Shown: positions 22,268 to 46,963 of the stretch, in pieces
Layout of the letters: the number at the start of each line of letters is the position of its first letter
Numbering within the stretch: the first letter of the stretch is position 1
Source of the DNA: an uncultured Erysipelotrichaceae bacterium
Lineage (GTDB): Bacteria > Bacillota_I > Bacilli_A > RFN20 > CAG-826
Assembly (NCBI GenBank): GCA_902785645.1
Contig: CACZZG010000002.1
Location: 88,226-152,225, forward strand
Direction of reading: 5' to 3'
Length of the DNA: 64,000 bases
Made by a program: the position numbers and the translations under genes
The notes under the pieces: model-generated
Seen by the model: the letters and a program-made list of their open reading frames with translations, nothing else
What the model was told of the DNA's origin: nothing
Databases searched by the model: none

Positions 22268-22357
22268 AATAATTTACCTATTTCGGATTACCGAAAGAAT
22301 ATTCTAACTTATTTATTTAAATCATTAAACAAATAAAAAATATAGTGTGATTGTATC

Positions 22358-22381
22358 AAAGAAAAAGGCCCTTATAGGGCC
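22358..22381 (-). terminator. Terminator between the two nuclease genes
   Basis: GGCCC-TTATA-GGGCC hairpin with a T-run on the minus strand (complement of A62-A66). Confidence 0.65.
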
Positions 22382-22390
22382 AATTCATTA

Positions 22391-27921: not shown

Positions 27922-27959
27922 GACACCATCTATCTAACATAATGGTATGATGTTTATAA

Positions 27960-29180: not shown

Positions 29181-29206
29181 AAACTGGAGTCGATTCCTCC
29201 AGTTTT
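29181..29206. terminator. Bidirectional terminator between the DUF1015-like gene and arcC
   Basis: AAACTGGAG (29181-29189) pairs with CTCCAGTTT (29197-29205). Confidence 0.65.
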
Positions 29207-29217: not shown

Positions 29218-30138
29218 TTATTTAATAATTGTTCCAGCTTTTTCTTGGAAAGCTTCCTTTGCCATTAATAAGGAAGATATGATTGCGGTTTTTCCTGGCT
29301 TCTCGCTTAAGAATTTTATACAAGCATTCACTTTTGGATACATACTTCCTTTAGCGAAGTAATCACCTTTCATATATTCTTTCATTTCATCGACCGAAAC
29401 TCTTTCAAGTTTTCTTTCTGTTGGTTTTTTGAAATCTATATAAACATTATCAACAGCAGTTAAGATTACTAGATAATCAGCATCGACCAATTCTGCTACT
29501 TTTGCGGAAGCATAATCTTTATCGATAACAGCGGCGATACCTTCTAGTGTTCCATCTTCATGACGAATCACTGGAATGCCTCCTCCACCTGCGCAAATAA
29601 CAACGTGTCCCTTGCCAACTAACTCAGAAATTGAATTCTTTTCGATGATATCAATTGGAAGTGGTGAAGCAACCACTCTTCTATATCCTCTCCCGGCATC
29701 TTCTTTCATGGTGTAACCCATGGTTTTTGCAATTTGTTCAGCCTCTTCTTTGCTATAGAAAGCACCAACCGGTTTACTTGGTGATTTGAATAGTGGATCA
29801 TTCTTATCTACAAGGACTTGTGTTACTAAAGTAACGATATCTCTTTTAATGCCTTGATTTTTTAGCTCATTATCAATGGCGTTTTGGATATGAAAACCAA
29901 TATAACCTTGGCTCATCGCACCACATTCTGGGAATGGCATATCTGGAACGCTTTTGGCATCAGTAAATGCTAAATTTATCATTCCAACTTGTGGTCCATT
30001 ACCATGAACGATAATTACTTCATTACCACTTTTAATTAATTCAACAATTGGTTTGGCAACACCCTTTAATAACTCTTTTTGTTCTTCAGCATTATTACCG
30101 AGGGCGTTACCACCTAAAGAAACAACATATCTAATCAT
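29218..30138 (-). CDS. arcC: Carbamate kinase
   Basis: N-terminus VVSLGGNALG, motifs HGNGPQVG and GGGGIPV, 306 aa. AAGGAGG RBS. Confidence 0.92.
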   Translation of the reverse strand: MIRYVVSLGGNALGNNAEEQKELLKGVAKPIVELIKSGNEVIIVHGNGPQVGMINLAFTDAKSVPDMPFPECGAMSQGYIGFHIQNAIDNELKNQGIKRDIVTLVTQVLVDKNDPLFKSPSKPVGAFYSKEEAEQIAKTMGYTMKEDAGRGYRRVVASPLPIDIIEKNSISELVGKGHVVICAGGGGIPVIRHEDGTLEGIAAVIDKDYASAKVAELVDADYLVILTAVDNVYIDFKKPTERKLERVSVDEMKEYMKGDYFAKGSMYPKVNACIKFLSEKPGKTAIISSLLMAKEAFQEKAGTIIK

Positions 30139-30247
30139 ATTCTTGCCTCCTTTAATATTTAATCACACATGATAAAAACTGATAAGAAGTAAAAACACGC
30201 ATATTGTGCACGCAGTTATCAAGGTTATAACTGTGTAAGCACGCGTA

Positions 30248-30265
30248 TTTTATTGCGCGTTAAAA
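30248..30265. promoter_or_regulatory. Candidate operator: quasi-palindrome TTTTATTGCGCGTTAAAA overlapping the operon -35
   Basis: TTTTA-TT-GCGC-GT-TAAAA symmetry. The same 10-mer occurs at 26864. GC-rich CACGCA/CACGCG repeats lie nearby at 30196, 30209 and 30240. Confidence 0.3.
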
Positions 30266-30281
30266 GTATTTTTCCTAAAAT
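30253..30281 (+). promoter_or_regulatory. Predicted promoter of the 14-gene purine-catabolic operon
   Basis: -35 TTGCGC (30253-30258), 17-nt spacer, -10 TAAAAT (30276-30281). GGAG at 30296-30299 precedes the ATG at 30305. Confidence 0.5.
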
Positions 30282-30304
30282 AGAAGTAGCGTTTCGGAGA
30301 AAAA

Positions 30305-30865
30305 ATGGCAAGTGGTATCATCCTCGCTGGAGGATTGTCTTCTAGAGCACAAACAAATAAGATGTCTTTTTTGTTTGATGGAAAGCCACTTCTTCAGCAT
30401 ACGATTGATTCACTAGAACCATTCGTGGACACCATCTATTTAGTTACTGGCCATTACGATCAAGAAATCAGAAGTTTTATAAAAGAAAGTCCAAAAATCA
30501 AAATTGTTTATAACCAAGATTATCAAAAAGGAATGTTTTCCTCAGTTCTAACAGGGGCAAGAGAAGTGAATGATGATGTATTCATTCTTCCTGGCGATAT
30601 TCCGTTTATAAAAAAAGAAACCTATCAAGCTTTGTTAAATGGTTCATTGGATGTTAGATGTCCAATATATCAAGGCAAAGAAGGACACCCATTATTCATA
30701 AAAAAAGAACTCGTTAAAGAGTTAATAAAAGAACCAATCGATAGCAACCTCAAGCTATTTAGAAATAAACACAAATTAGAAAAAATCGAAGTTAATGATA
30801 AAAATATCCTTAAGGATATAGATACAGTTGAACAATATAAAGAAATCACAAAAGAAAGGATGTAG
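30305..30865 (+). CDS. MobA-like NTP transferase (MocA/YgfJ-type molybdenum-cofactor cytidylyltransferase)
   Basis: N-terminus GIILAGGLSSR...K. 186 aa. First gene of the Mo-hydroxylase operon. Confidence 0.8.
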   Translation: MASGIILAGGLSSRAQTNKMSFLFDGKPLLQHTIDSLEPFVDTIYLVTGHYDQEIRSFIKESPKIKIVYNQDYQKGMFSSVLTGAREVNDDVFILPGDIPFIKKETYQALLNGSLDVRCPIYQGKEGHPLFIKKELVKELIKEPIDSNLKLFRNKHKLEKIEVNDKNILKDIDTVEQYKEITKERM

Positions 30866-30867
30866 TT

Positions 30868-31650
30868 ATGAGTTTAAGAGCAAAAGAATATTATCGTGCT
30901 TCTTCTTTAGAAGATGCTTATAACAAATTAAAAGAAAATCCTAAAAACGTTATCGTTGGTGGTGGGCTTTGGTTAAAGAAGACCGGCCTTGAATACCACA
31001 CAATTATCGATTTATCTAACCTTGGTTTAGATCAAATCAAAGAAGATAAAGATTTCATCTATGTTGGTTCAATGGTGTCTTTAAGAGATTTTGAAAACAG
31101 CCCAATTATTAACAAATTATTTAATGGTGTTATCGCTTTTGGTGTGAGAGAAGTTATGGGACCCGCATTTAGAAATATCGCCACAATTGGTGGTTCTGTT
31201 TACGGTCGCTTCCCTTTCTCTGATGTTATCGCTGCCTTATTACCATTAGATGTAAAAGTTAAGTTATATCCTAACCAAGAAATGTCATTAAATGACTTAG
31301 TCAATTACCGCGGTAAACTCGATGGTATTATTGAACAAATCATCATCAGAAAGGAAGAAGGTAAAGCATTCTTCAAGAAAGTTAAAACAACCGCTTTAGA
31401 TTTCCCAATGATTAACTTTTCTATTGTAAATAGAAGTGGTAAGAATTATATCGCTATTGGCTCAAGACCAGGCGTTGCCGCTTTAGCATATAAAGCTATG
31501 GAAGAAGCCGACAAAGGTAATTATGAAAAGGCCGCGGAAATTGCATCTCAAGAATTGCAATTCTTAGATAGTTCAAATATTTCCAAGGAATATAGAATAG
31601 ACCTCACTAAAGTCTATGTTTTAAGAGGTTTAAAGGAGGTCAATGAATAA
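30868..31650 (+). CDS. Xanthine dehydrogenase-family FAD-binding subunit (trio 1)
   Basis: FAD_binding_5-like VIVGGGLWLKK and ATIGGSVYG. 260 aa. Confidence 0.85.
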   Translation: MSLRAKEYYRASSLEDAYNKLKENPKNVIVGGGLWLKKTGLEYHTIIDLSNLGLDQIKEDKDFIYVGSMVSLRDFENSPIINKLFNGVIAFGVREVMGPAFRNIATIGGSVYGRFPFSDVIAALLPLDVKVKLYPNQEMSLNDLVNYRGKLDGIIEQIIIRKEEGKAFFKKVKTTALDFPMINFSIVNRSGKNYIAIGSRPGVAALAYKAMEEADKGNYEKAAEIASQELQFLDSSNISKEYRIDLTKVYVLRGLKEVNE

Positions 31651-32102
31651 TGAAACTAAGATTTTATTTAAATAACGTTGAAGTCGAATACGAAATTCAA
31701 CCAGATGAATATCTTGCTCAAGTTTTAAGAAGAAATGGCGTCCTTTCTATAAGAATTGGTTGTGATGAATCCGCATGTGGTTCATGTACAGTTTTAGTGG
31801 ATGATAAACCAGTCTTATCTTGTGGTTTATTAGCTGCGAAAGTGGAAGGAAAACATGTCACCACAGTCGAAGGTATCCAAGAAGAAGCTAATCGTTTAGC
31901 GGATTATTTTGGTGATGAAGGTGCTGACCAATGCTCGTTCTGCAGTGTTGGTTTTGCTTTAATCGTTCATGCTTTAAGAAAAGAATATAAAAACCCCACC
32001 GATGAACAAATCAAAGATTATATCGTCGGCAACATTTGTAGATGTACTGGCTATCAATCACAATTTAAAGCCATAAAAGCATATCTCAAGGAGGCTAAAT
32101 AG
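31650..32102 (+). CDS. Xanthine dehydrogenase-family [2Fe-2S] subunit (trio 1)
   Basis: CDESACGSCTVLVDDKPVLSC and QCSFCSVGF...CRCTGY cysteine patterns. Confidence 0.9.
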   Translation: MKLRFYLNNVEVEYEIQPDEYLAQVLRRNGVLSIRIGCDESACGSCTVLVDDKPVLSCGLLAAKVEGKHVTTVEGIQEEANRLADYFGDEGADQCSFCSVGFALIVHALRKEYKNPTDEQIKDYIVGNICRCTGYQSQFKAIKAYLKEAK

Positions 32103-32103
32103 A

Positions 32104-34425
32104 ATGAGTAAAAAATTTAAAGTTGTTAATAACAAAACCCATTCCGTTGATGGCCACGCTGAGATGATGGGTAGAGCCGTCTATACACAAGATTATGAAG
32201 CACCAGGTTCATTGGTCTTGAAGATGTTACGTTCTCCACACCCATTTGCAAGAATTAAAAATATTGATACCAGCAAAGCTGAATCTCTTAATGGTGTGAA
32301 ATGCGTTTTAACATATAAAAACGTTCCACACGTGGCTTTCTCTCGCGCTGGACAAGGCGCACCTCAACCATCCCCAATTGATAAATTTATCTTAGATGAA
32401 TATGTTAGATTCGTTGGTGATGAAGTGGCGGTAGTCGCTGCAATCAACGAAAAGATTGCGGAAGACGCACTTAAATTAATCCAAGTTGAATATGAGGTTT
32501 TAGAACCAGTTCTTGATTATAAAACCGCATACAAAAATAAGAGCGTTATTCACCCAGAAAGTGGCATTTCGCAGGCTTTTGAGATGGGTTTTCGCCCAAA
32601 AGACAACGTTGCAGCCTCTTATGAAATGGAAGTAGGTAACGTTGAAAAAGAACTCGAAAAATGCGATGTCGTTATTGAACATACAGCAGAAACACAAGCC
32701 CAAGCTCACGCGATGCTTGAACCACATTGTTCTAACGCTAGACTCGATGAACATAATCGTTTAGTGATTTATACATCCACACAAACACCATTCCATATTC
32801 GTCGTATTATGGCTCAAACATTAGGGATGCCATTATCACAAATTAGAATTGTCAAACCACGTGTTGGTGGTGGCTTTGGTGGCAAACAACAATTCCACTG
32901 CGAAATGTTTGTGGCATTAGTGACATTAAGAACTGGATTACCATCAAAGATGGTATATACAAGAGAAGAAGTTTTTGCTTCTTCTTATACACGTCACCCA
33001 ATGTGTATCACCATGAAAATTGGTGCGGATAAAGATGGCACAATTAAAGCCATTGATTGCCATGCCTTAAGTGATACAGGCGCTTATGGTGAACATGCTT
33101 TAACAGTCTTTATGATTGTGGGTAGTAAAGTCCTGCCTTTATATAACAAAGTTAATGCTGTCAGATTTGGCGGTAGAGTTTTATATACAAATCATGTACC
33201 TGCAGGCGCATACCGTGGGTACGGTGCTATTCAAGGCAACTATGTCTTAGAATCAGCGATTGATATTCTTGCAGAAAAATTACATATGGACCCCGTAGAA
33301 CTTCGTAAGAAGAATTCCATGAAGGAAAAAGAAACATCCCCAATCTTTGAAATTATGGGTGAAGGTACTAAAGGTACCGCAATGATCATGGAATCTTGTA
33401 AACTTCCATATTGTATCGAACGCGGTGCCGAACTTATTGATTGGAAAAATAAATATCCAAGAAAAGAAGTCGGACCACATAAAGTCAGATCAGTTGGTTG
33501 TGCAATTGCTATGCAAGGTAGTGGAATTCCATTCTCCGATATGGGAAGCTGCGCCATCACACTTCAAGATGGTGGCTTCTATATGGTGAGATGTGGTGCT
33601 ACTGATATTGGACAAGGCTCTGACACATTAATTAGCCAAATCGTCGCAGAAGAATTAATGACAACAGTTGATAAGATTGTTATATATTCTTCTGATACAG
33701 ACTTAGCGCCATTTGATGTTGGTGCATATGCCTCCTCCACAACATATATTTCTGGTAATGCCGCTTGGAAGACTGCCATTAAGATGAGAGAACGTCTCAT
33801 TAGTGAAGCAGCCACTATGCTAGGCGTTAAAGAAAATACTGTTGAATTCGATGGTAAGAAGTTTGTTTCTGGCGAAAAAGAAATTTCATTATTTGATTTA
33901 TCAAATAAATTAATATATTCCGCTCCTCAACATCAAGTTGCAGTGACTGAATCTTATATTGGTCATGTTTCTCCACCTCCATTTATGGCAGCTTATGCTG
34001 AAGTTGAAGTGGATACTGAAACTGGTGAATATGAAGTTATTGAATATGTCTCGGTAGTGGACTGTGGAACCACAATCAACCCAATGCTTGCTAAAGGACA
34101 AGTTGAAGGTGGTATTGTTCAAGGTTTTGGTATGGCTAGTAAAGAGGCTGTCTTATATAACAAAAATGGACAAATGCTTTCTAATAGCTTTCTTTATTAC
34201 CATGTCCCAACCACCAAAGATATTCATAAATTAACTACAGAATTCGCTGATTCTTATGAACCAACCGGTCCATTTGGTGCGAAATCTGTCGGTGAAATTG
34301 GTATTGATACACCTCCTGCGGTTATTTGCAACGCAATTTATAACGCTGTTGGCGTGAGAATCAATTCCTTACCAATCACTCCAGAAAAAATTCTTAAAGC
34401 AATGAAGGAAAAAGAGAATAGATAA
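32104..34425 (+). CDS. Xanthine dehydrogenase-family molybdopterin-binding subunit (trio 1, 773 aa)
   Basis: Motifs VGGGFGGKQQ, AYRGYGAIQ and SVGEIG. Has the a/b-hammerhead plus Mo-binding domain length. Confidence 0.9.
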   Translation: MSKKFKVVNNKTHSVDGHAEMMGRAVYTQDYEAPGSLVLKMLRSPHPFARIKNIDTSKAESLNGVKCVLTYKNVPHVAFSRAGQGAPQPSPIDKFILDEYVRFVGDEVAVVAAINEKIAEDALKLIQVEYEVLEPVLDYKTAYKNKSVIHPESGISQAFEMGFRPKDNVAASYEMEVGNVEKELEKCDVVIEHTAETQAQAHAMLEPHCSNARLDEHNRLVIYTSTQTPFHIRRIMAQTLGMPLSQIRIVKPRVGGGFGGKQQFHCEMFVALVTLRTGLPSKMVYTREEVFASSYTRHPMCITMKIGADKDGTIKAIDCHALSDTGAYGEHALTVFMIVGSKVLPLYNKVNAVRFGGRVLYTNHVPAGAYRGYGAIQGNYVLESAIDILAEKLHMDPVELRKKNSMKEKETSPIFEIMGEGTKGTAMIMESCKLPYCIERGAELIDWKNKYPRKEVGPHKVRSVGCAIAMQGSGIPFSDMGSCAITLQDGGFYMVRCGATDIGQGSDTLISQIVAEELMTTVDKIVIYSSDTDLAPFDVGAYASSTTYISGNAAWKTAIKMRERLISEAATMLGVKENTVEFDGKKFVSGEKEISLFDLSNKLIYSAPQHQVAVTESYIGHVSPPPFMAAYAEVEVDTETGEYEVIEYVSVVDCGTTINPMLAKGQVEGGIVQGFGMASKEAVLYNKNGQMLSNSFLYYHVPTTKDIHKLTTEFADSYEPTGPFGAKSVGEIGIDTPPAVICNAIYNAVGVRINSLPITPEKILKAMKEKENR

Positions 34426-34426
34426 T

Positions 34427-35740
34427 ATGTCTTTATTAATTAAAAACGGACTTGTTTATATCGATAGTTCTTGGCAAGAGGTCAACATCTTAATTGATGG
34501 TGAACGTTTTGTTTATGTTGGTAAAGAAGATAAACCTGCGGATGAAGTAATGGATGCAACTGGATTAAAGATTATTTCAGGAATAATTGATCCTCATGTT
34601 CACTTTGCTCTTTATTGCGGAACCGTTACTTCGGTTGATGATTTTGAAAGTGGAAGTAGAAGCGCTGCCTATGGTGGTGTGACTACAATCATCGATTTCT
34701 TAGATCCAACAAGAAACGCCAGAAAACTCGAAAGATCATTTTATGACCGTTTAGAATTAGCAAAGAAATGTCATGTTGATTACCATTTCCATGCATGTAT
34801 CAAAGAACCAGATGGTGATTTAGAAGAATATGTTTTAATGATGAAAAAGTTGGGAATGAACACAATTAAGTTGTTTACAACTTATTCTGAAACAAGACGT
34901 AGAACTTATGATCCTGACATCATTAAATTATTAGAGTTAACAAAGAAATATAATTTCCTTGTCACCGCTCATATTGAAAACGACGAATTAGTTTCATTGA
35001 AACCTGAATATGCATGTACATATATATCTGAAGCTCGCTCAAGTGAATGCGAATATAGCGAAGCCCTCAAGCTAGCGGGTTTTGCCAAACAGACACAAGG
35101 ATATTTATATATGGTTCACTGTTCGTCAGGAGAAACATTATCTAGATTGATTAATCAATACGGTGATATCTTAGGCAAACATTTCTATGTTGAAAGCTGC
35201 CCTCAATACTTTGCATTTAATAAAGAAGTTCTTAATAGTGAACAAGGCTATTTATATACATTTGCTCCTCCACTAAGAAGCAAGCAAGAACAAGAATTAT
35301 TAATTAAGAACATCAACTATGTGAACACCATTGGTACTGACCATTGTTCATTTATGTCTAGCGACAAAAAGAACCATCCATCATTAGTGGGACATCCATT
35401 AGGTATCGGTGGAATTGAATCTTCATTTGTGGTCATGCACAAACTATTCGGCGATCAAATAATTGATAAAATGACCAAAAATATCGCTGATTTAGAAGGA
35501 TTTTCGCAAAAAGGACGCATTTTTGCTGGAAAAGATGCAGATTTAGCATTTATTAAAGAGGTTGATGAATACCCAATCGGTAAGCCTCATGGAACATGTG
35601 ACTATAGTGTTTATGAAGGCATCAAAGTTAAAGAAAAAATCGTTCACACAATGCTTAGAGGACGCTTCATTTTAAAAGATGAACAGTTCCTTGGCGGACA
35701 AGGTGAATTAATAAATTGTGACAAGGAGGTCAAGTTCTAA
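34427..35740 (+). CDS. Cyclic amidohydrolase (dihydropyrimidinase/D-hydantoinase, HyuA-like)
   Basis: DPHVHF, TIKLFTTYS (position of the carbamylated Lys), AHIEND and GTDHCSF metal-ligand pattern. Confidence 0.8.
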   Translation: MSLLIKNGLVYIDSSWQEVNILIDGERFVYVGKEDKPADEVMDATGLKIISGIIDPHVHFALYCGTVTSVDDFESGSRSAAYGGVTTIIDFLDPTRNARKLERSFYDRLELAKKCHVDYHFHACIKEPDGDLEEYVLMMKKLGMNTIKLFTTYSETRRRTYDPDIIKLLELTKKYNFLVTAHIENDELVSLKPEYACTYISEARSSECEYSEALKLAGFAKQTQGYLYMVHCSSGETLSRLINQYGDILGKHFYVESCPQYFAFNKEVLNSEQGYLYTFAPPLRSKQEQELLIKNINYVNTIGTDHCSFMSSDKKNHPSLVGHPLGIGGIESSFVVMHKLFGDQIIDKMTKNIADLEGFSQKGRIFAGKDADLAFIKEVDEYPIGKPHGTCDYSVYEGIKVKEKIVHTMLRGRFILKDEQFLGGQGELINCDKEVKF

Positions 35741-37041: not shown

Positions 37042-37042
37042 T

Positions 37043-38137: not shown

Positions 38138-38148
38138 GAGAAAACAAT

Positions 38149-40242
38149 ATGGCTCAATTTAAGAATTCTACAGTCAAAATAGATAACGAAGAAAAGATGT
38201 CTGGTAAGGCATTATTTACTGATGATTTACCAAGCGAAGGCTTTCTTTGGGTTAGACCTTTACGTAGTAATATTCCCTGTGGACGTATCCGTACAATAAA
38301 CGTTCCTAAACTTCCTAAAGGATATTATTGGGTCGATGCTAAAGACATCGTTAAAGAAAATGTTGTGAACATCATCTTTTCCGATTGGCCTGTATTTGCT
38401 GATAGAAGAGTAAATTATTATGGTGAAACCATCGGTCTATTAATTGGACCTGATAAAGCTAAGCTTGAGGAATTAGGAAGACTTCTCCAAGTTAACTATG
38501 ATGAAGAAATACCTCATTTTAAACTCAACAATAGTAAGATTCACAAATCATTTACCAAAGGTAATTTAGATGAAGTTATTAAAAATCATGACTTCATGTT
38601 AGAAGAAACTTTTGAAACTGGGTATCAAGAACAAGTTTATTTAGAACCACAAAGCATGATTATGTGGCTTGATGGAGACAAAATTACTATCAAAGCCAGC
38701 ATGCAATGTCCTTTCTATATTAAAAACGCTGTCGTAAGAACACTCGGATGTTCACCAGATAAAGTGAGAGTTATTCAACCCGCTGTCGGTGGCGCTTTTG
38801 GTGGTAAAGAGCATTATCCATCTATGATGGCAGCACAATTAGCTACCGCTATTATGAAGATTAAAAAACCATTAAAGATGGTCTTTGATCGCAGTGAAGA
38901 TTTGATGTATACCACAAAAAGACATCCATCTAGAACGACATATACAGGTTATGTAAAAGATGGAAGACTTGTCGGTGTTAAAGCCCATGTTGGTCTCAAT
39001 GGTGGTGCTTATCTTGGTTGTTCTGGTGTTGTCTTAAACCGTGGACTTATTGCAGTTGTGGACTCATATGATGTTCCAAATCTTGATGTTACAGGCGATG
39101 TTTATGTTACAAACACTATGCCAACTGCTGCATTTAGAGGCTTTGGTTCACCGCAAACAATATTTGCTTTTGAAATGTTCATAGAACACATTGCTAAAGC
39201 CATTGGTGTTGATCCAGTGGAATTTAAACTCAAACATCTAGTGAAAAAGGGTCAAACAACCGCGGTAAACGGCAAATTTCATGACGATATAATTCTCCCT
39301 CAACTCGTTGAGAAAGCCATGGAGATGAGCGATTTTAAACGTAAATACAAAGAATATAGTAAGCCAGGATCTAATCGTGGTATTGGAATATCGACATTTC
39401 TCCATGGATGCGGCTTTACTGGAAGTGGTGAATCCACAATTATTAATGCCCAACTTAAATTAACTAAAGACGAGAATGATATTGTTCACTTATATACTTC
39501 TCAAGTTGATTTTGGACAAGGCAATAGAACCACATTAAAGAAAATAGTTTCTGATACTTTAGGTATACCTGAAGAACAAGTTACTCATGAAGCACCAGAT
39601 ACCGACCATACATTATCAACCGGTCCTACTGCGGCCAGCAGAACAATCATTATCGTTGGTTATTTATGTGAGAAAGCCGCGAAACATTTAAAAGAAATCT
39701 GGAAACCAGGTGTCTATCAAGAATGGATTGAACCATATGTTGGTCCTGATTATATTCACTGGGATGAAGATACATTACAAGGTGATGCTTATCCAGGTTA
39801 TGCTTGGGGTGTCAACATAGTTGAAATCAGTTTCGATCCTATTACTTATCAAGTAAAAGTAGAAGGCGCTTGGTCAACATATGATGTTGGTCACGCGATT
39901 GATGAAAGAATCGTTATCGGTCAAGCTGATGGTGGTTTAGCTCAAGCTATCGGCTATGGATATTTAGAAAATATGGAAATGGCAGAAGGAAGATTCAGAC
40001 AAAAGACTTTAGCCGACTATATCATTCCTACATCTGCGGACCTACCAATGATGGAAACCGAACTTATTGATAACTTATTTGCCTATGGCGCAAGTGGGGC
40101 AAAAGGCTGTGGTGAATTAACATTTGTTGGTGGTGCACCTGCCTTATGTCACGCAATAGAGATGGCAATTAATCGAAAAATATACAAAATACCAGCAAAT
40201 CCTGAATATTTAATGGAGTTAGTGGAAAATGGAAAAGATTAG
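38149..40242 (+). CDS. Xanthine dehydrogenase-family molybdopterin-binding subunit (trio 2, 697 aa)
   Basis: VGGAFGGKEHY (Glu after GGK, as in bona fide xanthine dehydrogenases), AFRGFGSPQ and GCGELT. Confidence 0.9.
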   Translation: MAQFKNSTVKIDNEEKMSGKALFTDDLPSEGFLWVRPLRSNIPCGRIRTINVPKLPKGYYWVDAKDIVKENVVNIIFSDWPVFADRRVNYYGETIGLLIGPDKAKLEELGRLLQVNYDEEIPHFKLNNSKIHKSFTKGNLDEVIKNHDFMLEETFETGYQEQVYLEPQSMIMWLDGDKITIKASMQCPFYIKNAVVRTLGCSPDKVRVIQPAVGGAFGGKEHYPSMMAAQLATAIMKIKKPLKMVFDRSEDLMYTTKRHPSRTTYTGYVKDGRLVGVKAHVGLNGGAYLGCSGVVLNRGLIAVVDSYDVPNLDVTGDVYVTNTMPTAAFRGFGSPQTIFAFEMFIEHIAKAIGVDPVEFKLKHLVKKGQTTAVNGKFHDDIILPQLVEKAMEMSDFKRKYKEYSKPGSNRGIGISTFLHGCGFTGSGESTIINAQLKLTKDENDIVHLYTSQVDFGQGNRTTLKKIVSDTLGIPEEQVTHEAPDTDHTLSTGPTAASRTIIIVGYLCEKAAKHLKEIWKPGVYQEWIEPYVGPDYIHWDEDTLQGDAYPGYAWGVNIVEISFDPITYQVKVEGAWSTYDVGHAIDERIVIGQADGGLAQAIGYGYLENMEMAEGRFRQKTLADYIIPTSADLPMMETELIDNLFAYGASGAKGCGELTFVGGAPALCHAIEMAINRKIYKIPANPEYLMELVENGKD

Positions 40243-40702
40243 TTTTTACTTAAATGGTAAGCAAGTTAAGCTTGCGATTGATCCTAGTACAAGATTACTA
40301 GATGTTTTACGTATCCGTTTACACATGACTGGTGTTAAAGAAGGATGCGGTGAAGGTGAATGTGGTGCATGTTCTGTTTTGGTGGATGGTGTTTGTTATA
40401 ACTCATGTTTAACACCAGTCGCTAATGTGATGGGAAAACACATTGTTACAATTGAAGGATTTAGAACCACAAAACAATATCGTATCATCGCTGACGCCTT
40501 TGCTGATTTTGGTGCTAGTCAATGTGGTTTCTGCACACCAGGCATGATTCTTAATGCCTATGCTTTATTAAAAAACAATCCTCATCCAAGTGAAGAAGAA
40601 GTGAGAATTGCCTTATCAGGTAACTTATGTAGATGTACAGGCTATAACGCAATCGTTAAAGCTATTTTAGAGATAGCGGAAAAAGGAGATATCGTATGGT
40701 AA
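40229..40702 (+). CDS. Xanthine dehydrogenase-family [2Fe-2S] subunit (trio 2)
   Basis: GCGEGECGACSVLVDG...NSC and QCGFCTPGMIL...CRCTGY. Confidence 0.9.
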   Translation: MEKISFYLNGKQVKLAIDPSTRLLDVLRIRLHMTGVKEGCGEGECGACSVLVDGVCYNSCLTPVANVMGKHIVTIEGFRTTKQYRIIADAFADFGASQCGFCTPGMILNAYALLKNNPHPSEEEVRIALSGNLCRCTGYNAIVKAILEIAEKGDIVW

Positions 40703-41538
40703 ATCACTATATTCCTTCATCTTTAAAAGAGGCTTTAAAAGTACTCAATAATCACGATTGCTATATCATGGCAGGGGGCACTGATTTAATGGTGGTTAAA
40801 CACCAAAAAAGTGGTATCGTTCCTAATTTTGATAAGGATGTTTGTTACATCTCTAATCTAAAAGAACTCCAATACATCTATGAAGATGAACAAGGCGTTC
40901 ATATTGGTGCGGGAACAAAATTTGTGGATATTGAAAATAGCATGATTGTTCCTGATTTGCTAAAGCAAATAATTCATGAATTAGCCTCACCAAATATCAG
41001 AAACATGGCCACGATGGCGGGCAATATCGCAAACGCATCACCTGCGGGTGACAGTATTGTTGGTCTATATTTATTAGACGCTAAATTAGAACTTGTGAAT
41101 GTGAATGGTTCTCGTTTAGTGCCTATTGAAAAATTCATTTTGGGTGTGAGAAAAATTGCCCGAAAGAGCAATGAAATAATTAAGGAAATCTTTATTCCAC
41201 ATCACGACGATTTAAACACTTATTGGAGAAAGGTTGGATCACGTGCCGCAGAAAGCATTTCTAAAGTTACTTTCGCTGGTGGATATCAAGTGGAAGATGG
41301 TGTTGTTAAAGATTTAAGAATGGCGTTTGGTAGTATCGGTGTCACATGTGTTAGAGATCAAAAGATTGAACAAAAATGCATTGGCATGACAGTTGAAGAA
41401 TTACATAAAAACATTGATAACATTCTTAATGACATGTCTAAGAACATTACACCAATCACTGATCAAAGAAGCACAAAAGAATATCGTTATAAAGTGGCGA
41501 TGAACATTCTTAAAGATTTCTTAAATGTTATTGAATAG
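40696..41538 (+). CDS. Xanthine dehydrogenase-family FAD-binding subunit (trio 2)
   Basis: IMAGGTDLMV and ATMAGNIANASPAGD, plus a CO-dehydrogenase-flavoprotein C-terminal-like tail. Confidence 0.85.
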   Translation: MVNHYIPSSLKEALKVLNNHDCYIMAGGTDLMVVKHQKSGIVPNFDKDVCYISNLKELQYIYEDEQGVHIGAGTKFVDIENSMIVPDLLKQIIHELASPNIRNMATMAGNIANASPAGDSIVGLYLLDAKLELVNVNGSRLVPIEKFILGVRKIARKSNEIIKEIFIPHHDDLNTYWRKVGSRAAESISKVTFAGGYQVEDGVVKDLRMAFGSIGVTCVRDQKIEQKCIGMTVEELHKNIDNILNDMSKNITPITDQRSTKEYRYKVAMNILKDFLNVIE

Positions 41539-41546
41539 GAGGAGTT

Positions 41547-42800
41547 ATGGCGAACACAAGATTTGTACTCGGTTATAAATGCACATTATGTGGCAAAACC
41601 TTTAAAGAAGATGAAGCTAATTTAACTTGTCCAGAATGTGGAGAAAAAGGAATTCTCGATGTCGTTTTTGACTATAAATCACTCAAAAAAGTCTTAAATC
41701 TTGAATATTTTAAGCAAAATAAGGACTTTTCAATGTGGAGATACGCTCCACTAATGGGTGTTAGTGAAGAACACATTGGTGAGATGTTACGCATTGGTTG
41801 GACACCTTTAATTAGAAGTCATAACTTAGCAAAACTATTAGGGCTTAAAGAATTATATATTAAAGATGATGGCCTTAATCCATCAGGTTCAAGTAAAGAT
41901 AGAGCCAGTGGTGTAGCGGTGTTAAAAGCCATTGAAGCAGGAGCAAAAGTTATTTCTTGTTCCTCAACTGGTAATGCCGCAAGTAGTTGTGCATGTCACG
42001 CTGCACACATGGGTTTACCCGCGGTTATCTTTGTTCCAAAAAGAGCGCCAATTGGTAAAACCACACAAATATGTTTATATGGAGCAACTTTAATTAAAGT
42101 TGATGGAGATTATAAAGCTGCTTTCCAACTATCCAAAGCTGCGATTGAAAAATATGGTTGGTATAACCGTAATGCAGCCATTAATCCATGGATGGTTGAA
42201 GGCAAAAAGACTGTCTCATTAGAGATAGCGGAACAATTAGGATTTAAACCCACTGATTGGATATGTGTCTCAGTTGGAGACGGATGCACAGTCGGAGGTG
42301 TTTATAAAGGATTTCATGATCTAAAGGAATTGGGATTAATTGATAGGATCCCTCGTATTCTTGCTGTACAAAGTACAGGATGTGAGCCATTCGTTATTGC
42401 GGATCATAATAACGAACCACTAAAAGAAGCAGAAGAGAATACGATTGCTGATAGCATTGCTGTTGGCATTCCACGCAATCCGATTAAGGCTATTAATGCG
42501 GTAAAGAATAGTCATGGTGTTTGGATATCGGTTCCAGACAGCGACATTCTTGAGGTAGAAGCCTTGCTAGGTCGTACTGAAGGTATCTTCGGAGAACCAG
42601 CGGGAGTTGCCTCACTTGCCGGATTAATGAAGGCATTAAAAGACGGAATCATAAGAAATGATGAATCCGTGACCTTCATTGTCACCGGAAACGGACTCAA
42701 AGATCCGGCAAATGCACAAAAGGCAATTGCCCAACCCGAAGTGATGAAACCCGATCTAGCATGTCTAGATAGATATTTAAAAGAAAAGGAGATTATTTAG
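41547..42800 (+). CDS. Threonine-synthase-like fold-type-II PLP enzyme with an N-terminal zinc ribbon
   Basis: CTLCGK...CPECGEKG ribbon. The PLP-Lys motif is NPSGSSKDRASG (canonical threonine synthase has GSFKDRG). SSTGNAA and a glycine-rich loop VGDGCTVGG. Confidence 0.72.
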   Translation: MANTRFVLGYKCTLCGKTFKEDEANLTCPECGEKGILDVVFDYKSLKKVLNLEYFKQNKDFSMWRYAPLMGVSEEHIGEMLRIGWTPLIRSHNLAKLLGLKELYIKDDGLNPSGSSKDRASGVAVLKAIEAGAKVISCSSTGNAASSCACHAAHMGLPAVIFVPKRAPIGKTTQICLYGATLIKVDGDYKAAFQLSKAAIEKYGWYNRNAAINPWMVEGKKTVSLEIAEQLGFKPTDWICVSVGDGCTVGGVYKGFHDLKELGLIDRIPRILAVQSTGCEPFVIADHNNEPLKEAEENTIADSIAVGIPRNPIKAINAVKNSHGVWISVPDSDILEVEALLGRTEGIFGEPAGVASLAGLMKALKDGIIRNDESVTFIVTGNGLKDPANAQKAIAQPEVMKPDLACLDRYLKEKEII

Positions 42801-44186
42801 ATGCCAAAAGCAAAAATTCCATTTGGTCCAACATATGACGAAATGTTGAACCCATCTCACCAAGATAAAGAAGTGAGAAAGTTAGCGGAAAAAGCATTAA
42901 AAGAGAATGAACTCGATCCAATCAACCTCTTTAACATCACCTGGAAAAATAGTAAGGATGGTACAGTTAACAAAATTGTTCTTCCTAAAGAATTAACCGG
43001 TGTCGATGCAAATATCGTCGTCTTATTAGGAAAATATTTCCCATCAGGATCACATAAAGTCGGTCCTGCTTACGCCACCCTTATGGAAGGATGTGTTGAT
43101 GGAGAAATCATTCCTGGTAAACATACTATTTTAGGTCCTTCTACTGGCAACTTTGGTATTGGTGTTAGTTATATAACTAACTTAATGAAATATGACGCAA
43201 TCGTCATCATGCCAGACAACATGTCTAAAGAAAGATATGAAAGAATTCAAAAATATGGTGCTAAACTCGATTTAACACCTGGTAGTGAATCTGACGTTAT
43301 CTTAACTTTAGAGAGAACTTATGAATTAAAGAAAAACCCAAAGAACGCGACATTAGCCCAATTTGAATTATTACCAAATTATCGTTTCCATAGACACGTC
43401 ACCGGTAATTCCTGTGTTGAAGCCGTTGAAGGAATTGGTAATGGACGTATTGCTTGCTTCTGTTCCGCACCTGGTAGTGCCGGTACATTAGCCGCAGGCG
43501 ATCAAATTAAAGCCGTCTTCCCAGAATGTAAAGTTGTCGCCTTAGAACCACATGAATGTTCTACATTAACTAATGGTGGTTTAGGACAACATCGTATTGA
43601 AGGTATTGGCGATAAGATGATTACTCTTATTCACAACGCTTTAACCACAGACTTTATTACTCAAATCATCGATGACGATTGTGTCCGTGGTTTAGCGGTT
43701 ATCCATGAAGGTTCTGAAGTGTTAGAAAAACATGGTATTGATAAGAAATTAGCCGAATCAATGGTGGATCTCTTTGGTGTCTCTGGTATTTGTAATATCT
43801 TAGGCGCAATTAAGATGGCCAAATATTTAAAACTCGGACCAGAAGATAATGTAGTAACAATTGCTACAGATAGTTTTGACCGTTATCCATCAGTCATGGA
43901 AGATTTACATCGTCGTGAATTAGAAGTGACACCAAACGTCTTAGAAAGATGGTTTGAAGATGTCTTTATGGGTGCGGATACACGTTACATCCTAGATACA
44001 CGTGGTAAAGAAGCTAAAGAAGCCCTCTTCGAACAAAAAGAAAGAGACTGGTTAAAGTTTGGTTATTCTAAAGAATATTTAGATTCCATGAAGAAGATGT
44101 CCTTCTGGGAAGATGAATATAACAAGATTAAACAATACGATGAAAAGATTAAGAAATTAAGAGGAACAGAATTCGATTATGAGTAA
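42801..44186 (+). CDS. Fold-type-II PLP-dependent enzyme (cysteine-synthase/thiolase-like, 461 aa), function unknown
   Basis: [10 protein letters not shown] (PLP Lys), [10 protein letters not shown] and [12 protein letters not shown] loops. Long C-terminal extension. Confidence 0.68.
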
Positions 44187-45414
44187 TGTTGATTTTAAAA
44201 AAGTTCTTGCTTTAGCAGAAAAGTATAAACCAGACATGGTTAAATTCCTTCGCGATATGGTCGCTATTCCTAGTGAATCATGCGAAGAAAGAGAAGTTGT
44301 GTTAAGAATTAAACAAGAGATGGAAAAAGTCGGTTTCGACAAAGTCGAAATTGACCCAATGGGAAACATCTTAGGCTATATTGGCCATGGTAAACACCTC
44401 ATTGGTATGGACGCACACATCGATACCGTTGGTATTGGTGAAATCAAAAACTGGACATTTGATCCATATAAAGGTTTTGAAGATGATGTTTATATCGGTG
44501 GTCGTGGAACAAGTGACCAAGAAGGTGGCATGGCCTCAATGGTCTACGCCGCAAAAATCATTAAAGAATTAGGTCTAGAAGATGACTACACATTAGTAAT
44601 TACCGGCACTGTCCAAGAAGAAGATTGCGATGGTTTATGCTGGAAATACATCATTTGTGAAGATAAAGTCAGACCAGAATTCGTCGTTTCTACAGAACCA
44701 ACAAGTTGTCAAATTTATAGAGGACATCGTGGTCGTATGGAAATCTGTGTTAATGTCCGTGGTATTTCTTGCCATGGTAGTGCACCAGAACGTGGTGATA
44801 ACGCAATCTATAAGATGGCGCCAATCATTGAACAAATTAAAGAGCTTAATGAGAAGAAACCAGAAGAAGGTGGACTTGCTTATGATCCATTCTTAGGCAA
44901 AGGTACAGTCACCATTTCTCAAATCTTCCACAAATCACCAAGCCGTTGTGCGGTCGCTGATGGATGTTGGATTTCTCTAGATAGAAGATTAACTGTTGGT
45001 GAAAATGATGTGACCTCTATCAATGAGATTAAGAACTTACCAGCCTGTAAGGCTGCTAATGCTGAAGTCTTCATGTATCAATATGAAAGACCAAGCTATA
45101 CTGGACTTAATTATCCAATCGAATGTTACTTCCCAACATGGGTCATTCCCGAAGATAGTGATTATGTCCAAGCCATGAAAGAAGGCTATGAAGGCTTATT
45201 TGAAAAAGCCCCAGTTATCGATAAATGGACATTCTCCACAAATGGTGTTGCCATTATGGGTAGATATGGAATTCCATGTATCGGATTTGGTCCTGGAGAC
45301 GAAAAAGAAGCTCACGCACCAAATGAAAAGACACGTAAACAAGACCTTGTTATTTGTGCAGCCATGTATGCGGTCTTACCAAATCTTTATCTCGCTAGAA
45401 TTGCGAAAAAATAA
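44179..45414 (+). CDS. ygeY: YgeY-like M20 family metallo-hydrolase
   Basis: N-terminus [30 protein letters not shown] and TVQEEDCDG metal ligands. 411 aa. Context with the ygeW-like gene. Confidence 0.8.
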
Positions 45415-45441
45415 TGAAAATATAGGAGTTTTACAGTAATT

Positions 45442-46452
45442 ATGCAAAAAATTGAACCAAGATTTGCAGGTCGTCACCTCATCACATTAGAAGATTTCAC
45501 CAAAGAAGAAATCGACTACATGCTCAAAGTATCAAGAGAATTAAAAGATGCTTTCTACGCTAACGAAGAAACCCAATGGTTAGTGGGTAAAACCGGTTTC
45601 TTAATGTTCTTTGAACAATCCACAAGAACCAGAAACTCATTTGAAAGTGGTATGGCCCAATTAGGTGGTCACGCCACATTCTTAGATACATCTATGATGC
45701 AAATTGCTCATGGTGAATCTGCAAAAGATACAGCCACAATCTTATCATCATTCGGTCATATGATTGCTTGCCGTTATTGCAACTGGGGACTAGGAAATAA
45801 ATACATTCGTGAAATGGCGAAATGGTCAACAGTCCCAATCATCAACTTGCAATGTGACTTATATCACCCAATGCAAGCCCTTGCCGATTTAATGACAATT
45901 GAAGATGAATTTGGTAAAACCAAAAACCTCAAAGTTTCTGTCATTTGGGCAATGGCCACAACACACAAGAAACCAATTTCTGTTCCTGTTAGCCAAGTCT
46001 TATTATTCCCACGTTATGGAATTGATGTGACATTAGCTTATCCAGAAGGTTATGACTTACCAGATTGGGTTATCGAAAAAGCGAGAAAGAACGCTGCTGA
46101 AAATGGCGGATCATTAACCATCACACATGATATGGAAGCCGCTTATAGAGATGCAGATGTCGTCTTCCCAAAGAACTGGGGTAGTTGGGTTACCAATCAA
46201 TCCACAACAGTTGTCGATGATGCTTTATTAGCTTTAAAAGCTTGGAAGTGCACACCAGAAATGATGAAACTTGCTAAACCAAGCTGCCGCTATATGCACG
46301 CATTACCAGCGGATAGAGTTAACGAAGTAGTGGATGAAGTTATTGATGGTCCACAATCAGTTGTTTACGAAGAAGCTGAAAATAGAATTCATACCGCTAA
46401 AGCTGTTATGGCGTTATTCGTCCATGACAAATTACCAAGCGATAGAAGATAG
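45442..46452 (+). CDS. ygeW: YgeW-like carbamoyltransferase (ATC/OTC superfamily)
   Basis: STRTR, QIAHGES, NLQCDLYHPMQALADL, GIDVTLAYPEGYDL and YMHALPAD resemble my recollection of E. coli YgeW more than OTC. At 336 aa it is shorter than YgeW. Confidence 0.72.
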   Translation: MQKIEPRFAGRHLITLEDFTKEEIDYMLKVSRELKDAFYANEETQWLVGKTGFLMFFEQSTRTRNSFESGMAQLGGHATFLDTSMMQIAHGESAKDTATILSSFGHMIACRYCNWGLGNKYIREMAKWSTVPIINLQCDLYHPMQALADLMTIEDEFGKTKNLKVSVIWAMATTHKKPISVPVSQVLLFPRYGIDVTLAYPEGYDLPDWVIEKARKNAAENGGSLTITHDMEAAYRDADVVFPKNWGSWVTNQSTTVVDDALLALKAWKCTPEMMKLAKPSCRYMHALPADRVNEVVDEVIDGPQSVVYEEAENRIHTAKAVMALFVHDKLPSDRR

Positions 46453-46503: not shown

Positions 46504-46556
46504 AGGGCTTCTCCTTGACAAAGCCACCTTGATAATTCAATATAATAATAGAGTGG

Positions 46557-46577
46557 GGTCCCGTATGGGACCTTTTT
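46557..46577 (+). terminator. Strong rho-independent terminator
   Basis: GGTCCC-GTAT-GGGACC followed by TTTTT. It also sits 7 nt past the stop of the minus-strand small ORF. Confidence 0.65.
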
Positions 46578-46583
46578 CTTTAT

Positions 46584-46697
46584 CTATTTTTCAATAGACA
46601 AACCAACACTATTAATAGTATTAATATTATACAGATGGTTTCCATCAGTATACCCTTTCCAGGGCATGGAGAAGGCCTGAAGTTGTAATTTGCTCAT
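46584..46697 (-). CDS. Candidate 37-aa small protein (unannotated, below the track cutoff)
   Basis: Hand translation: MSKLQLQAFSMPWKGYTDGNHLYNINTINSVGLSIEK*. AAGGAGA lies 9 nt upstream. The start codon sits in the loop of an 8-bp hairpin (46675-46682 / 46710-46717). A hairpin follows the stop. Confidence 0.3.
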   Translation of the reverse strand: MSKLQLQAFSMPWKGYTDGNHLYNINTINSVGLSIEK

Positions 46698-46879
46698 AGA
46701 ACAAATCTCCTTCAGGCGGCTTTAGGCCCTCCTACCAACTAATAGGGAAAACTGAGGAAATTTTTTTCATTAAATTTTCATTATATTTTTTAATCAAAGA
46801 TTACTTTATATAATAATTATTCAAATTTATTTAGAATTACTTATTAACCTATATAACACGAAAAATTAATAAAATGACT

Positions 46880-46908
46880 TTGCTATTAACAAAATTTTTT
46901 GTTATTAT
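46880..46908 (+). promoter_or_regulatory. Promoter of rpmE
   Basis: -35 TTGCTA (46880-85), 17-nt spacer, extended -10 TGtTATTAT (46900-08). Confidence 0.55.
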
Positions 46909-46963
46909 CATTAAGCAAACTTTCTTTGGGCGAAGTACTGCTCAAGGCGGAAGGAGACAATTT

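Follow-up and report, generated by a model that had tools for sequence, protein, structure and literature searches.

In this study, we analysed a 64,000-nt stretch of DNA (hereafter the window) from an uncultured Erysipelotrichaceae bacterium (contig CACZZG010000002.1, positions 88,226 to 152,225), in which a run of 14 genes and a divergent carbamate kinase gene occupy positions 29218-46452. The locus is very probably a real, conserved operon for anaerobic purine catabolism of the known reductive type. The degradation of purines and urate by gut anaerobes is a defined pathway that draws clinical interest in gout and hyperuricaemia. We believe that the locus does not represent a new class of pathway, and its unusual gene content has, for the most part, a published or simple explanation. 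Judged from its genes, however, it defines a widespread variant without DpaL (YgeX), with two mis-annotated pyridoxal phosphate (PLP) enzymes and a short clade of YgeW.

The gene layout was taken from the table of open reading frames (ORFs) of the window, and the junction sizes were computed from its coordinates. An earlier note on this DNA had described 14 co-directional genes (30305-46452), 0-27 nt apart or overlapping, and each of these ORFs was found again, tightly packed on the plus strand. The gaps were 2, 1, 1, 1, 11, 8, 0, and 27 nt, the widest lying 5' of the carbamoyltransferase gene, and the overlaps were 1, 1, 14, 7, and 8 nt. The longest ORF of the seventh gene, which encodes the reductase, opens at a GTG at 36986 within the upstream gene. 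The true start is likely the ATG at 37043, because AGGAGG lies 8 nt upstream of it, the alignments with homologues begin only at residue 20, and public gene calls in same-species contigs give 364 amino acids. Dozens of species-level genomes, as well as metagenome contigs, carry the same gene block, and for this reason we regard the operon as more than a chance arrangement. The G+C content was even throughout the window.

The carbamate kinase gene diverges from the 166-bp control region as had been described. A promoter had also been predicted at 30253-30281, but the consensus promoter scan listed zero sites in the control region; by eye, there is a good -10 element (TAAAAT, about 30276-30281) with a poor -35 element (TTGCGC, 3/6). 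The imperfect dyad in this region, which has repeated CACGC on its flanks, is a candidate operator, and no regulator gene is encoded near it. The Rfam scan at gathering thresholds found no riboswitch or RNA leader near the operon. Terminators had been described after 46452 only, and the strongest terminator-like hairpin of the plus strand was indeed located there, whereas the hairpins inside the operon were weak (3 G-C pairs). We predict that the operon ends at this hairpin. The approximately 390 nt that follow (46575-46963) are AT-rich and non-coding up to the likely rpmE start, ATG 46964; the listed ORF (46874-47176) makes L31 30 codons too long.

Table 1. Features of the purine locus and its surroundings (window positions; aa, amino acids; PLP, pyridoxal phosphate; FAD, flavin adenine dinucleotide; FMN, flavin mononucleotide; CDA, cytidine deaminase).
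Feature	Position	Strand	Basis or remark
Two large Endonuclease-I proteins, 953 and 537 aa, followed by a TldD/PmbA pair	19406-24004, 24091-26813	-	second Endonuclease-I protein with Ig-like domains
CDA-fold guanine deaminase, 154 aa	26930-27394	+	best PDB match B. subtilis 1WKQ, 135 bits
Two-way hairpin	29180-29206	both	closes arcC
arcC carbamate kinase (predicted)	29218-30138	-	divergent from operon
arcC/mocA divergent control region	30139-30304	.	166 nt
Imperfect dyad ACGCAGTTAT-N7-ATAACTGTGT	30210-30236		in control region; inverted-repeat search
MocA/YgfJ-like molybdenum-cofactor nucleotidyltransferase	30305-30865	+	family level only
FAD-binding subunit, trio 1	30868-31650	+	weak XdhB-type match, 65-69 bits; Pfam FAD_binding_5
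[2Fe-2S] subunit, trio 1	31650-32102	+	XdhC-type, 126-134 bits; 39% to E. coli XdhC
Mo-pterin subunit, trio 1 (Mo1), 773 aa, XdhD-like	32104-34425	+	37% to XdhD
Cyclic amidohydrolase, hydantoinase/dihydropyrimidinase superfamily, HyuA role	34427-35740	+	divergent clade
SsnA-clade aminohydrolase	35740-37041	+	SsnA models are best matches
PreA/PydA-type (DHO_dh) FMN reductase, C-terminal 2x[4Fe-4S] domain	37043-38137	+	Pfam DHO_dh + Fer4
Mo-pterin subunit, trio 2 (Mo2), 697 aa	38149-40242	+	25% to XdhA and XdhD alike
[2Fe-2S] subunit, trio 2	40229-40702	+	XdhC model, 172 bits; 45% to E. coli XdhC
FAD-binding subunit, trio 2	40696-41538	+	XdhB model, 164 bits; 28% to E. coli XdhB
ThrC-like fold-type-II PLP enzyme, N-terminal Cys4 zinc ribbon	41547-42800	+	TIGR00260
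CysK-fold PLP enzyme, 461 aa, N- and C-terminal extensions	42801-44186	+	cysK model, fold search
YgeY, M20 ureido-group hydrolase	44179-45414	+	TIGR03526
Carbamoyltransferase, 336 aa, "mini-YgeW"	45442-46452	+	YgeW-specific motifs
Intrinsic-terminator-like hairpin	46555-46574	+	8-bp stem, 5 G-C pairs, then T run

Protein families were assigned by NCBIfam and Pfam scans and by BLAST against the ygeW-xdhD region of Escherichia coli K-12, and most of the other window ORFs of at least 100 amino acids were scanned for domains. The motif-level gene calls of the earlier note all held at the family level. The product of arcC passed TIGR00746 (377 bits, cut-off 358) with 54% identity to E. coli YqeA, and we assign it as a carbamate kinase of the ArcC/YqeA type. 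The M20 hydrolase was to be told from generic DapE/ArgE enzymes by a profile test; it passed the YgeY models widely (TIGR03526, 677 bits, cut-off 321), and at 70% identity to the E. coli protein it is assigned as an unambiguous YgeY orthologue.

For the carbamoyltransferase, the corresponding test concerned ornithine and putrescine carbamoyltransferases (OTC and PTC), and it passed no OTC or PTC model and had no ornithine motifs. No NCBIfam model at all was passed: the OTC model TIGR00658 ranked first with 268 bits (cut-off 281), and the YgeW models TIGR03316 and NF005538 gave 186 and 198 bits (cut-offs 500 and 453). The call of a YgeW-like enzyme was therefore right at the motif level and failed at the model level, with 37% identity to E. 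coli YgeW. The protein was aligned with E. coli ArgI, E. coli YgeW, and true YgeW proteins from related loci. It has the YgeW-specific motifs QIAHGE, NLQCDxxHPxQ, WAxxxxxKPxSVP...DVTLAxPEGYDLP, PKxW, and YMHxLPAD, and it is shorter than YgeW (approximately 396 amino acids) and lacks three insertions of that protein. The ornithine-binding loop DxxxSMG of OTC is absent; the region aligned to D-V-W-x-S-M(-G) is PKNWGSW, in which both the D and the SM are missing, and the HCLP motif of OTC is HALP. An OTC identity was excluded by the score below cut-off, the missing SMG loop, and HALP. The protein is best described, from these motifs, as a member of a short, insertion-less clade of the YgeW lineage, which we call mini-YgeW. 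Its expected reaction is the release of carbamoyl phosphate by cleavage of an intermediate with a ureido group. In "OH" Bacillota metagenome-assembled genomes (MAGs), a true YgeW (66-69% identity to that of E. coli) takes this slot.

The two PLP enzymes stand where a DpaL would be expected. The DpaL model gave only 52 and 24 bits on them against a cut-off of 276, and no homologue of YgeX was found in any of 160 fetched related loci of approximately 20 kb each. Studies have shown that dpaL is one of five genes present in all confirmed purine degraders, and it served as a search criterion (Kasahara et al., 10.1101/2022.12.12.520169). The ThrC-like protein passed the thrC model TIGR00260 (197 bits, cut-off 167). 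Four residues, T88, S155, R160, and N188 (Thermus thermophilus numbering), were invariant in four solved ThrC structures, and the window protein, like every readable relative (70-74 of 76), has A, A, M/L, and D in their stead. These four residues reportedly line the phosphate site (Omi et al. 2003); a literature search on this role found nothing. Because four invariant ThrC residues are replaced across the family, we conclude from the alignment that the ThrC-like protein is not a threonine synthase.

The CysK-like protein gave 134 bits with the cysK model, far below the cut-off of 351. No variation was seen in the PLP lysine (Lys86), the S-T-G-N loop, Q187, or S328, and the protein keeps all residues for formation of the aminoacrylate intermediate. 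It has approximately 60 extra residues at the N-terminus and 100 at the C-terminus. The AlphaFold model was of moderate confidence (predicted local distance difference test score, pLDDT, 75), and a Foldseek search with it returned only generic CysK and beta-cyanoalanine synthase folds, with no PDB counterpart for either extension. The protein thus shares its fold with CysK, and membership in the cysteine synthases is not supported by these profile and fold searches. The family is small and unnamed, with 118 representatives at E <= 1e-30. In the NCBIfam scan, the distant relatives matched no family specific to them, only cysteine-synthase, CBS, and SbnA models below threshold, and relatives carry the Joint Genome Institute (JGI) label "cysteine synthase". 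Most members read GSHKVG at the PLP position; in alignment A2, P0164 reads QTLKSG and P0234 has no lysine there (GSYQVG), so that at least P0234 may be a paralogue without catalytic function. Neither of the two 2025 preprints on the pathway (10.1101/2025.05.19.654654; 10.1101/2025.04.24.650524) mentions such PLP enzymes. Li et al. (10.1101/2025.05.19.654654) scored any PF00291 protein in the neighbourhood as "YgeX", and this scoring would therefore hide the difference between YgeX and the PLP pair.

The distribution of the CysK-like protein shows how closely it follows the pathway genes. Its close relatives occur only in uncultured "Bacilli bacterium" or "Erysipelotrichaceae" MAGs from rumen and gut. 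When one genome per species was scanned, at least 549 genomes had a relative, and 80 loci were kept. Within the cluster, it shows the highest conservation (73-91% identity among these 80). By tblastn, the kept loci share the block hydantoinase-SsnA-UacX-Mo2-FeS2-FAD2-ThrC-like-CysK-like-YgeY-carbamoyltransferase (FeS2 and FAD2 being the subunits of trio 2), and their hosts are rumen and gut Bacilli, Izemoplasmatales, one Acholeplasmatales MAG, and other Bacillota. Full flanks (at least 8 kb upstream and at least 2.5 kb downstream) were available for 55 loci. The ThrC-like protein, YgeY, and the carbamoyltransferase accompanied the CysK-like protein in 55/55, SsnA in 52/55, the hydantoinase in 50/55, and UacX in 45/55; YgfK was detectable in five loci overall. 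In "OH" Bacillota, the order HyuA-YgeW-CysK-like-ArcC-ThrC-like-YgeY mirrors ygeW-ygeX-ygeY-hyuA-yqeA of E. coli, and the CysK-like gene lies directly 3' of ygeW, which is the position of ygeX in E. coli. Judging from gene content, modules swap within one conserved frame, either YgfK or UacX and either true YgeW or mini-YgeW.

A metagenome scan was seeded with more distant CysK-like relatives. In contigs from peat, sediment, and digesters, the CysK-like protein (59-68% identical) was found among SsnA, UacX, Mo/FeS genes, YgeY, and arcC, together with a short carbamoyltransferase (50-52% identical), and the ThrC-like gene was missing in some. The nearest outgroup of the CysK-like family (L088, L089, and L092) shares approximately 50% identity with P0123 and 55-59% with the window protein. 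In L088 (3498-12345), the outgroup gene lies between DhaKLM dihydroxyacetone kinase genes and a gene for a 905-aa altronate/galactarate-dehydratase-like protein; this context is not a purine cluster and is uninformative.

The enzymes for ring reduction and ring opening are more divergent. The cyclic amidohydrolase matched a dihydropyrimidinase model best (TIGR02033, 222 bits, cut-off 393), with 29% identity to E. coli HyuA, and it is kept at 46-69% identity in related clusters. The SsnA-clade protein gave 363 bits with NF005540 (cut-off 444) and 331 bits with a second SsnA model (cut-off 455), the best non-SsnA family was far lower (136 bits), and identity to E. coli SsnA was 30%. The SsnA aminohydrolase was a cluster marker for Li et al. 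(10.1101/2025.05.19.654654), and we propose that the protein opens the reduced 2,8-dioxopurine ring. The reductase has the architecture of UacX (DHO_dh plus 2x4Fe-4S) and was likened to C. difficile UacX by description only; YgfK fills this slot in loci L056 and L057. Most likely, to judge from this architecture, it is a 2,8-dioxopurine reductase of the UacX type that stands in for YgfK. The MocA-like protein gave 128 bits with TIGR03310 (cut-off 186), with 29% identity to E. coli MocA and Pfam NTP_transf_3 in public gene calls.

By tblastn, E. coli YgfK, YgeX, YqeB, and YqeC had no homologue in the window, the sole trace being a weak partial YgeX match (26%) on the ThrC-like gene, and no nucleobase permease, regulator, or SelD-type domain was found among the scanned window ORFs. 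The absences listed in the earlier note are thus borne out. The loss of YgfK is not new, since the substitution by UacX has been published (10.1101/2025.05.19.654654), and the remark that the chemistry is only partly assigned is outdated after the in vitro reconstitution of 2025 (10.1101/2025.05.19.654654; 10.1101/2025.04.24.650524). What stands of the proposed new pathway version is the two PLP enzymes at the YgeX position and the short carbamoyltransferase. The earlier view, in which the locus is a compact form of the anaerobic purine/urate system of the ygeW/ygeY/ssnA/xdhD type, was supported.

Two molybdenum hydroxylase trios are present. Mo1 shares 37% identity with E. coli XdhD and 33% with XdhA, and it gave 578 bits with TIGR03313 (cut-off 1102). 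In a MAFFT alignment, Mo1 and E. coli XdhD have an insertion of approximately 10 residues in common (IMGEGTKGT and AIGEGKAPT), which holds E606, a residue singled out in XdhD by Li et al. (10.1101/2025.05.19.654654). Mo2 and XdhA are without the insertion, and so are the Mo enzymes in several related clusters. The best PDB match of Mo1 was the reductive 4-hydroxybenzoyl-CoA reductase (318 bits), whereas those of Mo2 were eukaryotic xanthine dehydrogenase (XDH) and xanthine oxidase (176 bits); Mo2 is part of the core that stays syntenic across the related clusters. Because of the XdhD loop and the respective best solved relatives, we favour, with some confidence, Mo1 as the enzyme of urate 6-dehydroxylation (2,8-dioxopurine dehydrogenase, DOPDH), with Mo2 as that of (hypo)xanthine hydroxylation. 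Under this assignment, the degradation of hypoxanthine would be redox-neutral, because two hydroxylations yield four electrons and the dehydroxylation and ring reduction use four. The E606 loop was also considered as a universal marker of DOPDH against XDH and was rejected, since the sole Mo enzyme of some related clusters is without it; the loop is confined to the Mo1/XdhD lineage.

The published pathway was reconstituted in vitro for E. coli, C. sporogenes, and C. difficile in the 2025 preprints (10.1101/2025.05.19.654654; 10.1101/2025.04.24.650524). According to Li et al. (10.1101/2025.05.19.654654), XdhD-YgfM reduces urate to 2,8-dioxopurine, YgfK reduces this further, SsnA opens the ring to ureidomethyl-hydantoin, and HyuA yields 2,3-diureidopropionate. 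The two ureido groups are taken off by YgeW (or the hydrolytic UacY) and YgeY, and YgeX converts 2,3-diaminopropionate into pyruvate. In C. difficile, UacX, a PydA-like FMN/Fe-S enzyme, replaces YgfK (10.1101/2025.05.19.654654). Liu et al. (10.1101/2025.04.24.650524) reported the same scheme, the formation of ATP by YgeW and YqeA, and a dependence on SelD. The order in which the two ureido groups come off differs between the two papers (10.1101/2025.05.19.654654; 10.1101/2025.04.24.650524).

We consider it likely that the locus encodes a complete anaerobic route from purine to pyruvate, a variant of this reductive uric-acid (2,8-dioxopurine) pathway; all steps were assigned by homology and gene context. 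The upstream deaminase would convert guanine into xanthine, one trio, probably trio 2, would oxidise (hypo)xanthine to urate, and the other, probably the XdhD-like trio 1, would remove the 6-oxo group from urate, yielding 2,8-dioxopurine; MocA would provide the cytosine-dinucleotide form of the Mo cofactor. The ring would then be reduced by the ferredoxin-type FMN reductase and opened by the SsnA-clade hydrolase to ureidomethyl-hydantoin, which the hydantoinase-like enzyme would convert into 2,3-diureidopropionate. The short YgeW-type transferase would phosphorolyse one ureido group, and carbamate kinase would turn the carbamoyl phosphate into ATP, an energy step that the earlier note had foreseen and that has been shown for YgeW and YqeA (10.1101/2025.04.24.650524). 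YgeY would hydrolyse the remaining ureido group to give 2,3-diaminopropionate. In the last and least certain step, the CysK-like enzyme, aided by or parallel to the ThrC-like enzyme, would carry out a beta-elimination to pyruvate and ammonia.

A purine is taken as the substrate because adenine and guanine deaminase genes occur in orthologous clusters and nucleases lie nearby. The PLP pair is tied to the pathway by its constant company of pathway genes and by the absence of YgeX from the fetched loci. Our proposal, which falls a little short of an even chance, is that the pair is an undescribed terminal module that replaces DpaL, possibly with other chemistry, and occurs in several hundred species at least; here it is paired with the unrecognised short YgeW clade. 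Possible chemistries are beta-elimination or beta-replacement on 2,3-diaminopropionate and/or 3-ureidoalanine, perhaps with one enantiomer per enzyme. There is about an even chance, given its conserved residues, that the CysK-like enzyme supplies the beta-elimination of the C3 amino acid to pyruvate, and the ThrC-like enzyme may be a partner for the other isomer or for a ureido-bearing intermediate.

Several observations weigh against this proposal and the route as a whole. YgeX could sit elsewhere in the genomes, as approximately 20 kb per locus was examined. The replacement of one YgeX by two PLP enzymes is without explanation, and the CysK-like gene occurs without the ThrC-like gene in some clusters (L130, L136, L143, and others). 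In characterised organisms selD, yqeB, and yqeC are required (10.1101/2025.04.24.650524), and none of them lies in the window. The SsnA, hydantoinase, and MocA proteins, as well as the two Mo subunits, do not reach the curated cut-offs, with 25-37% identity to the E. coli enzymes, and their substrates are therefore assigned by inference only. Mo1 still has Arg where XdhD has Gln, and some related clusters have a Mo2-type enzyme alone and others a Mo1-type enzyme alone.

The same path might also lead to the C3 amino acid and end in another way, by beta-replacement on the CysK-like enzyme (for example, diaminopropionate or albizziin plus sulfide to cysteine) or by elimination of urea from albizziin (3-ureidoalanine) on the ThrC-like enzyme, so that the C3 unit or a ureido group would leave by a route not described in 2025. 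We consider this unlikely, though the use of two PLP enzymes where a single YgeX would do speaks for it, as does the full CysK beta-replacement residue set of the CysK-like enzyme. In the ThrC-like pocket, the four invariant residues are gone and an Asp and a hydrophobic residue have come in, which we infer would favour a distal group that is uncharged or cationic, ureido or amino for example, and the disputed order of ureido removal leaves intermediates with a free alpha-amino group unsettled. YgeY at 70% identity to the E. coli enzyme, however, still leads us to expect diaminopropionate, with little need for a urea-lyase, and a high-flux catabolic operon is unlikely to finish in cysteine. 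The orthologous cluster of Xianfuyuplasma coldseepsis was induced by thiosulfate (PMC8397711), which fits a sulfur-consuming replacement but is perhaps an indirect effect, and the domain scans of the ORFs found no urease or sulfur gene in the window.

Two other readings change the substrate or remove the PLP genes from the pathway. A different N-heterocycle, such as a pyrimidine, a hydroxylated pyrimidine, or a pteridine, could be reduced by the PydA-like enzyme, opened by the dihydropyrimidinase-like one, and cleaved at its N-carbamoyl group by YgeY and the carbamoyltransferase. The PydA/PreA-like reductase, the dihydropyrimidinase model ranking first for the amidohydrolase, and the scores of SsnA, the hydantoinase, and the Mo subunits under the curated cut-offs agree with it, but the SsnA-clade hydrolase, the well-conserved YgeY, and the XdhD-specific loop point to the urate pathway, the orthologous clusters contain adenine and guanine deaminases, and two Mo hydroxylases and a fold-type-II PLP lyase would be superfluous for pyrimidine reduction; we regard it as very improbable. 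That the PLP genes are ordinary biosynthetic threonine and cysteine synthases which ride along, as they are read in the public annotation and in PMC8397711, is hardly credible. The thrC model was passed and relatives bear the JGI name, but the four ThrC residues, the arginine of NPxR included, are replaced family-wide, the cysK score is far too low, the extensions of the CysK-like protein have no PDB counterpart, and both genes strictly co-occur with purine genes over distant lineages. The classic clostridial route from xanthine to formiminoglycine was also rejected, as it needs no reductase, YgeY, or PLP lyase; the C. acidurici genome paper makes no mention of genes for these.

The surroundings of the operon agree with the purine-to-pyruvate route. 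A guanine deaminase had been reported upstream, and the 154-aa protein found there does resemble the B. subtilis enzyme; two unrelated genes keep it apart from the operon. These encode an LRAT/NlpC-P60-like protein (160 aa) and a DUF1015 protein (406 aa) on the plus strand (27439-29180), between the deaminase gene and arcC, and they are kept in same-species contigs. In most Izemoplasma-type loci, guanine deaminase homologues (45-68%) adjoin the carbamoyltransferase gene or lie within approximately 0.7 kb downstream of it. In L075 (Mycoplasmatota strain zrk2, CP076020.1), FAD2 and the ThrC-like gene are separated by a 571-aa gene for an adenine deaminase (Pfam Adenine_deam_C), and a gap of equal size was seen in other Izemoplasma-type loci. 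The glycine-cleavage genes of L075 start approximately 2 kb downstream of its purine cluster (15540-20861: lipoate-protein ligase, GcvT, both GcvP subunits, and a 127-aa ORF of GcvH size), which may be fortuitous or may point to a connection with C1/glycine metabolism.

Directly upstream of the guanine deaminase gene in the window are a secreted Endonuclease-I pair and then a TldD/PmbA pair. The Endonuclease-I genes and the deaminase suggest that this neighbourhood serves nucleic-acid foraging, in the manner of the Izemoplasmatales "DNA-degradation loci". Studies have shown that Izemoplasmatales regions of this type appear as "xanthine-degradation loci" in Extended Data Fig. 9 of Wasmund et al. 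2021 (PMC8289736), that in cultured X. coldseepsis the cluster G4Z02_01105-01195 was co-induced (PMC8397711), and that a similar cluster of Hujiaoplasma was up with added DNA and RNA (PMC10470597). The last four genes of the cluster were interpreted as amino-acid metabolism in these papers (PMC8289736; PMC8397711; PMC10470597). Farther away, a gene of the pseudouridine-5'-phosphate glycosidase type (15540-16445, plus strand; Indigoidine_A/PsuG, 425 bits), beside a P-type ATPase and an Fe-ADH, is predicted to be a further nucleoside-salvage or catabolism gene of the window. The genes dnaA, dnaN, recF, gyrB, and gyrA at 1326-10076 (plus strand) indicate that the window opens at the chromosomal origin region, and the purine operon lies approximately 30 kb from this region, in the same orientation as these genes. 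A full-length cow-rumen-1 RNA (Rfam; 63794-63854, plus strand; 80.8 bits, gathering threshold 53.4), which belongs to an orphan small RNA family, fits the rumen origin of the contig.

These results bear on how purine degraders are counted. Published surveys find them by BLAST against YgeX/DpaL, YgeW, and other pathway proteins with identity cut-offs (10.1101/2022.12.12.520169). The cut-off against C. sporogenes YgeW was 63%, and the carbamoyltransferase in this study has 37% identity to E. coli YgeW. Because DpaL is absent and the identity to YgeW is low, abundant rumen Bacilli, many Izemoplasmatales, and other carriers of the module could be missed or misread, and, if our reading is true, surveys that require dpaL or YgeW-level identity undercount purine degraders. 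A "threonine synthase" without the four ThrC pocket residues and a 461-aa "cysteine synthase" would also gain a testable biochemical setting. The locus and its adjacent secreted nucleases support the idea that rumen Bacilli live on nucleic acids, as has been proposed for marine Izemoplasmatales.

Compared with known systems, the locus resembles the arginine deiminase module in the phosphorolysis of a ureido group to carbamoyl phosphate and substrate-level ATP, but it has no arginine deiminase and no antiporter, and its transferase lacks DxxxSMG and has HALP for HCLP. Like the cluster of E. coli and C. sporogenes, it has an XdhD-like Mo enzyme, SsnA-clade and hydantoinase-type hydrolases, YgeY, carbamate kinase, a YgeW-related transferase, and MocA, and, like E. 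coli, it has an XdhABC-like second hydroxylase and a guanine deaminase nearby. Unlike that cluster, the window is without YgeX/DpaL, YgfK, YqeB, YqeC, a regulator, and a permease, the carbamoyltransferase is without the three YgeW insertions, and two extra PLP enzymes are present; the XdhD-like enzyme consists of three subunits, whereas that of E. coli is an FeS-Mo fusion plus YgfM. As in the C. difficile variant, a PydA-like FMN/[4Fe-4S] reductase without a FAD/NAD(P)H domain takes the reductase slot, and the lack of this domain suggests a ferredoxin-type electron donor, as proposed for UacX. In C. difficile, in contrast, UacY replaces YgeW/YqeA, whereas an ATP-yielding carbamoyltransferase and carbamate kinase occur here, and both Mo enzymes here have FAD subunits. 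The papers on Izemoplasmatales drew no tie from their loci to the 2,8-dioxopurine pathway. The block from the hydantoinase to the carbamoyltransferase is orthologous in those loci, with 45-77% identity gene by gene. Several Izemoplasma-type loci have a gap of adenine deaminase size between FAD2 and the ThrC-like gene, and most have a guanine deaminase gene just downstream of the carbamoyltransferase gene, whereas the rumen lineage has the XdhD-like trio 1, MocA, and the divergent arcC in addition.

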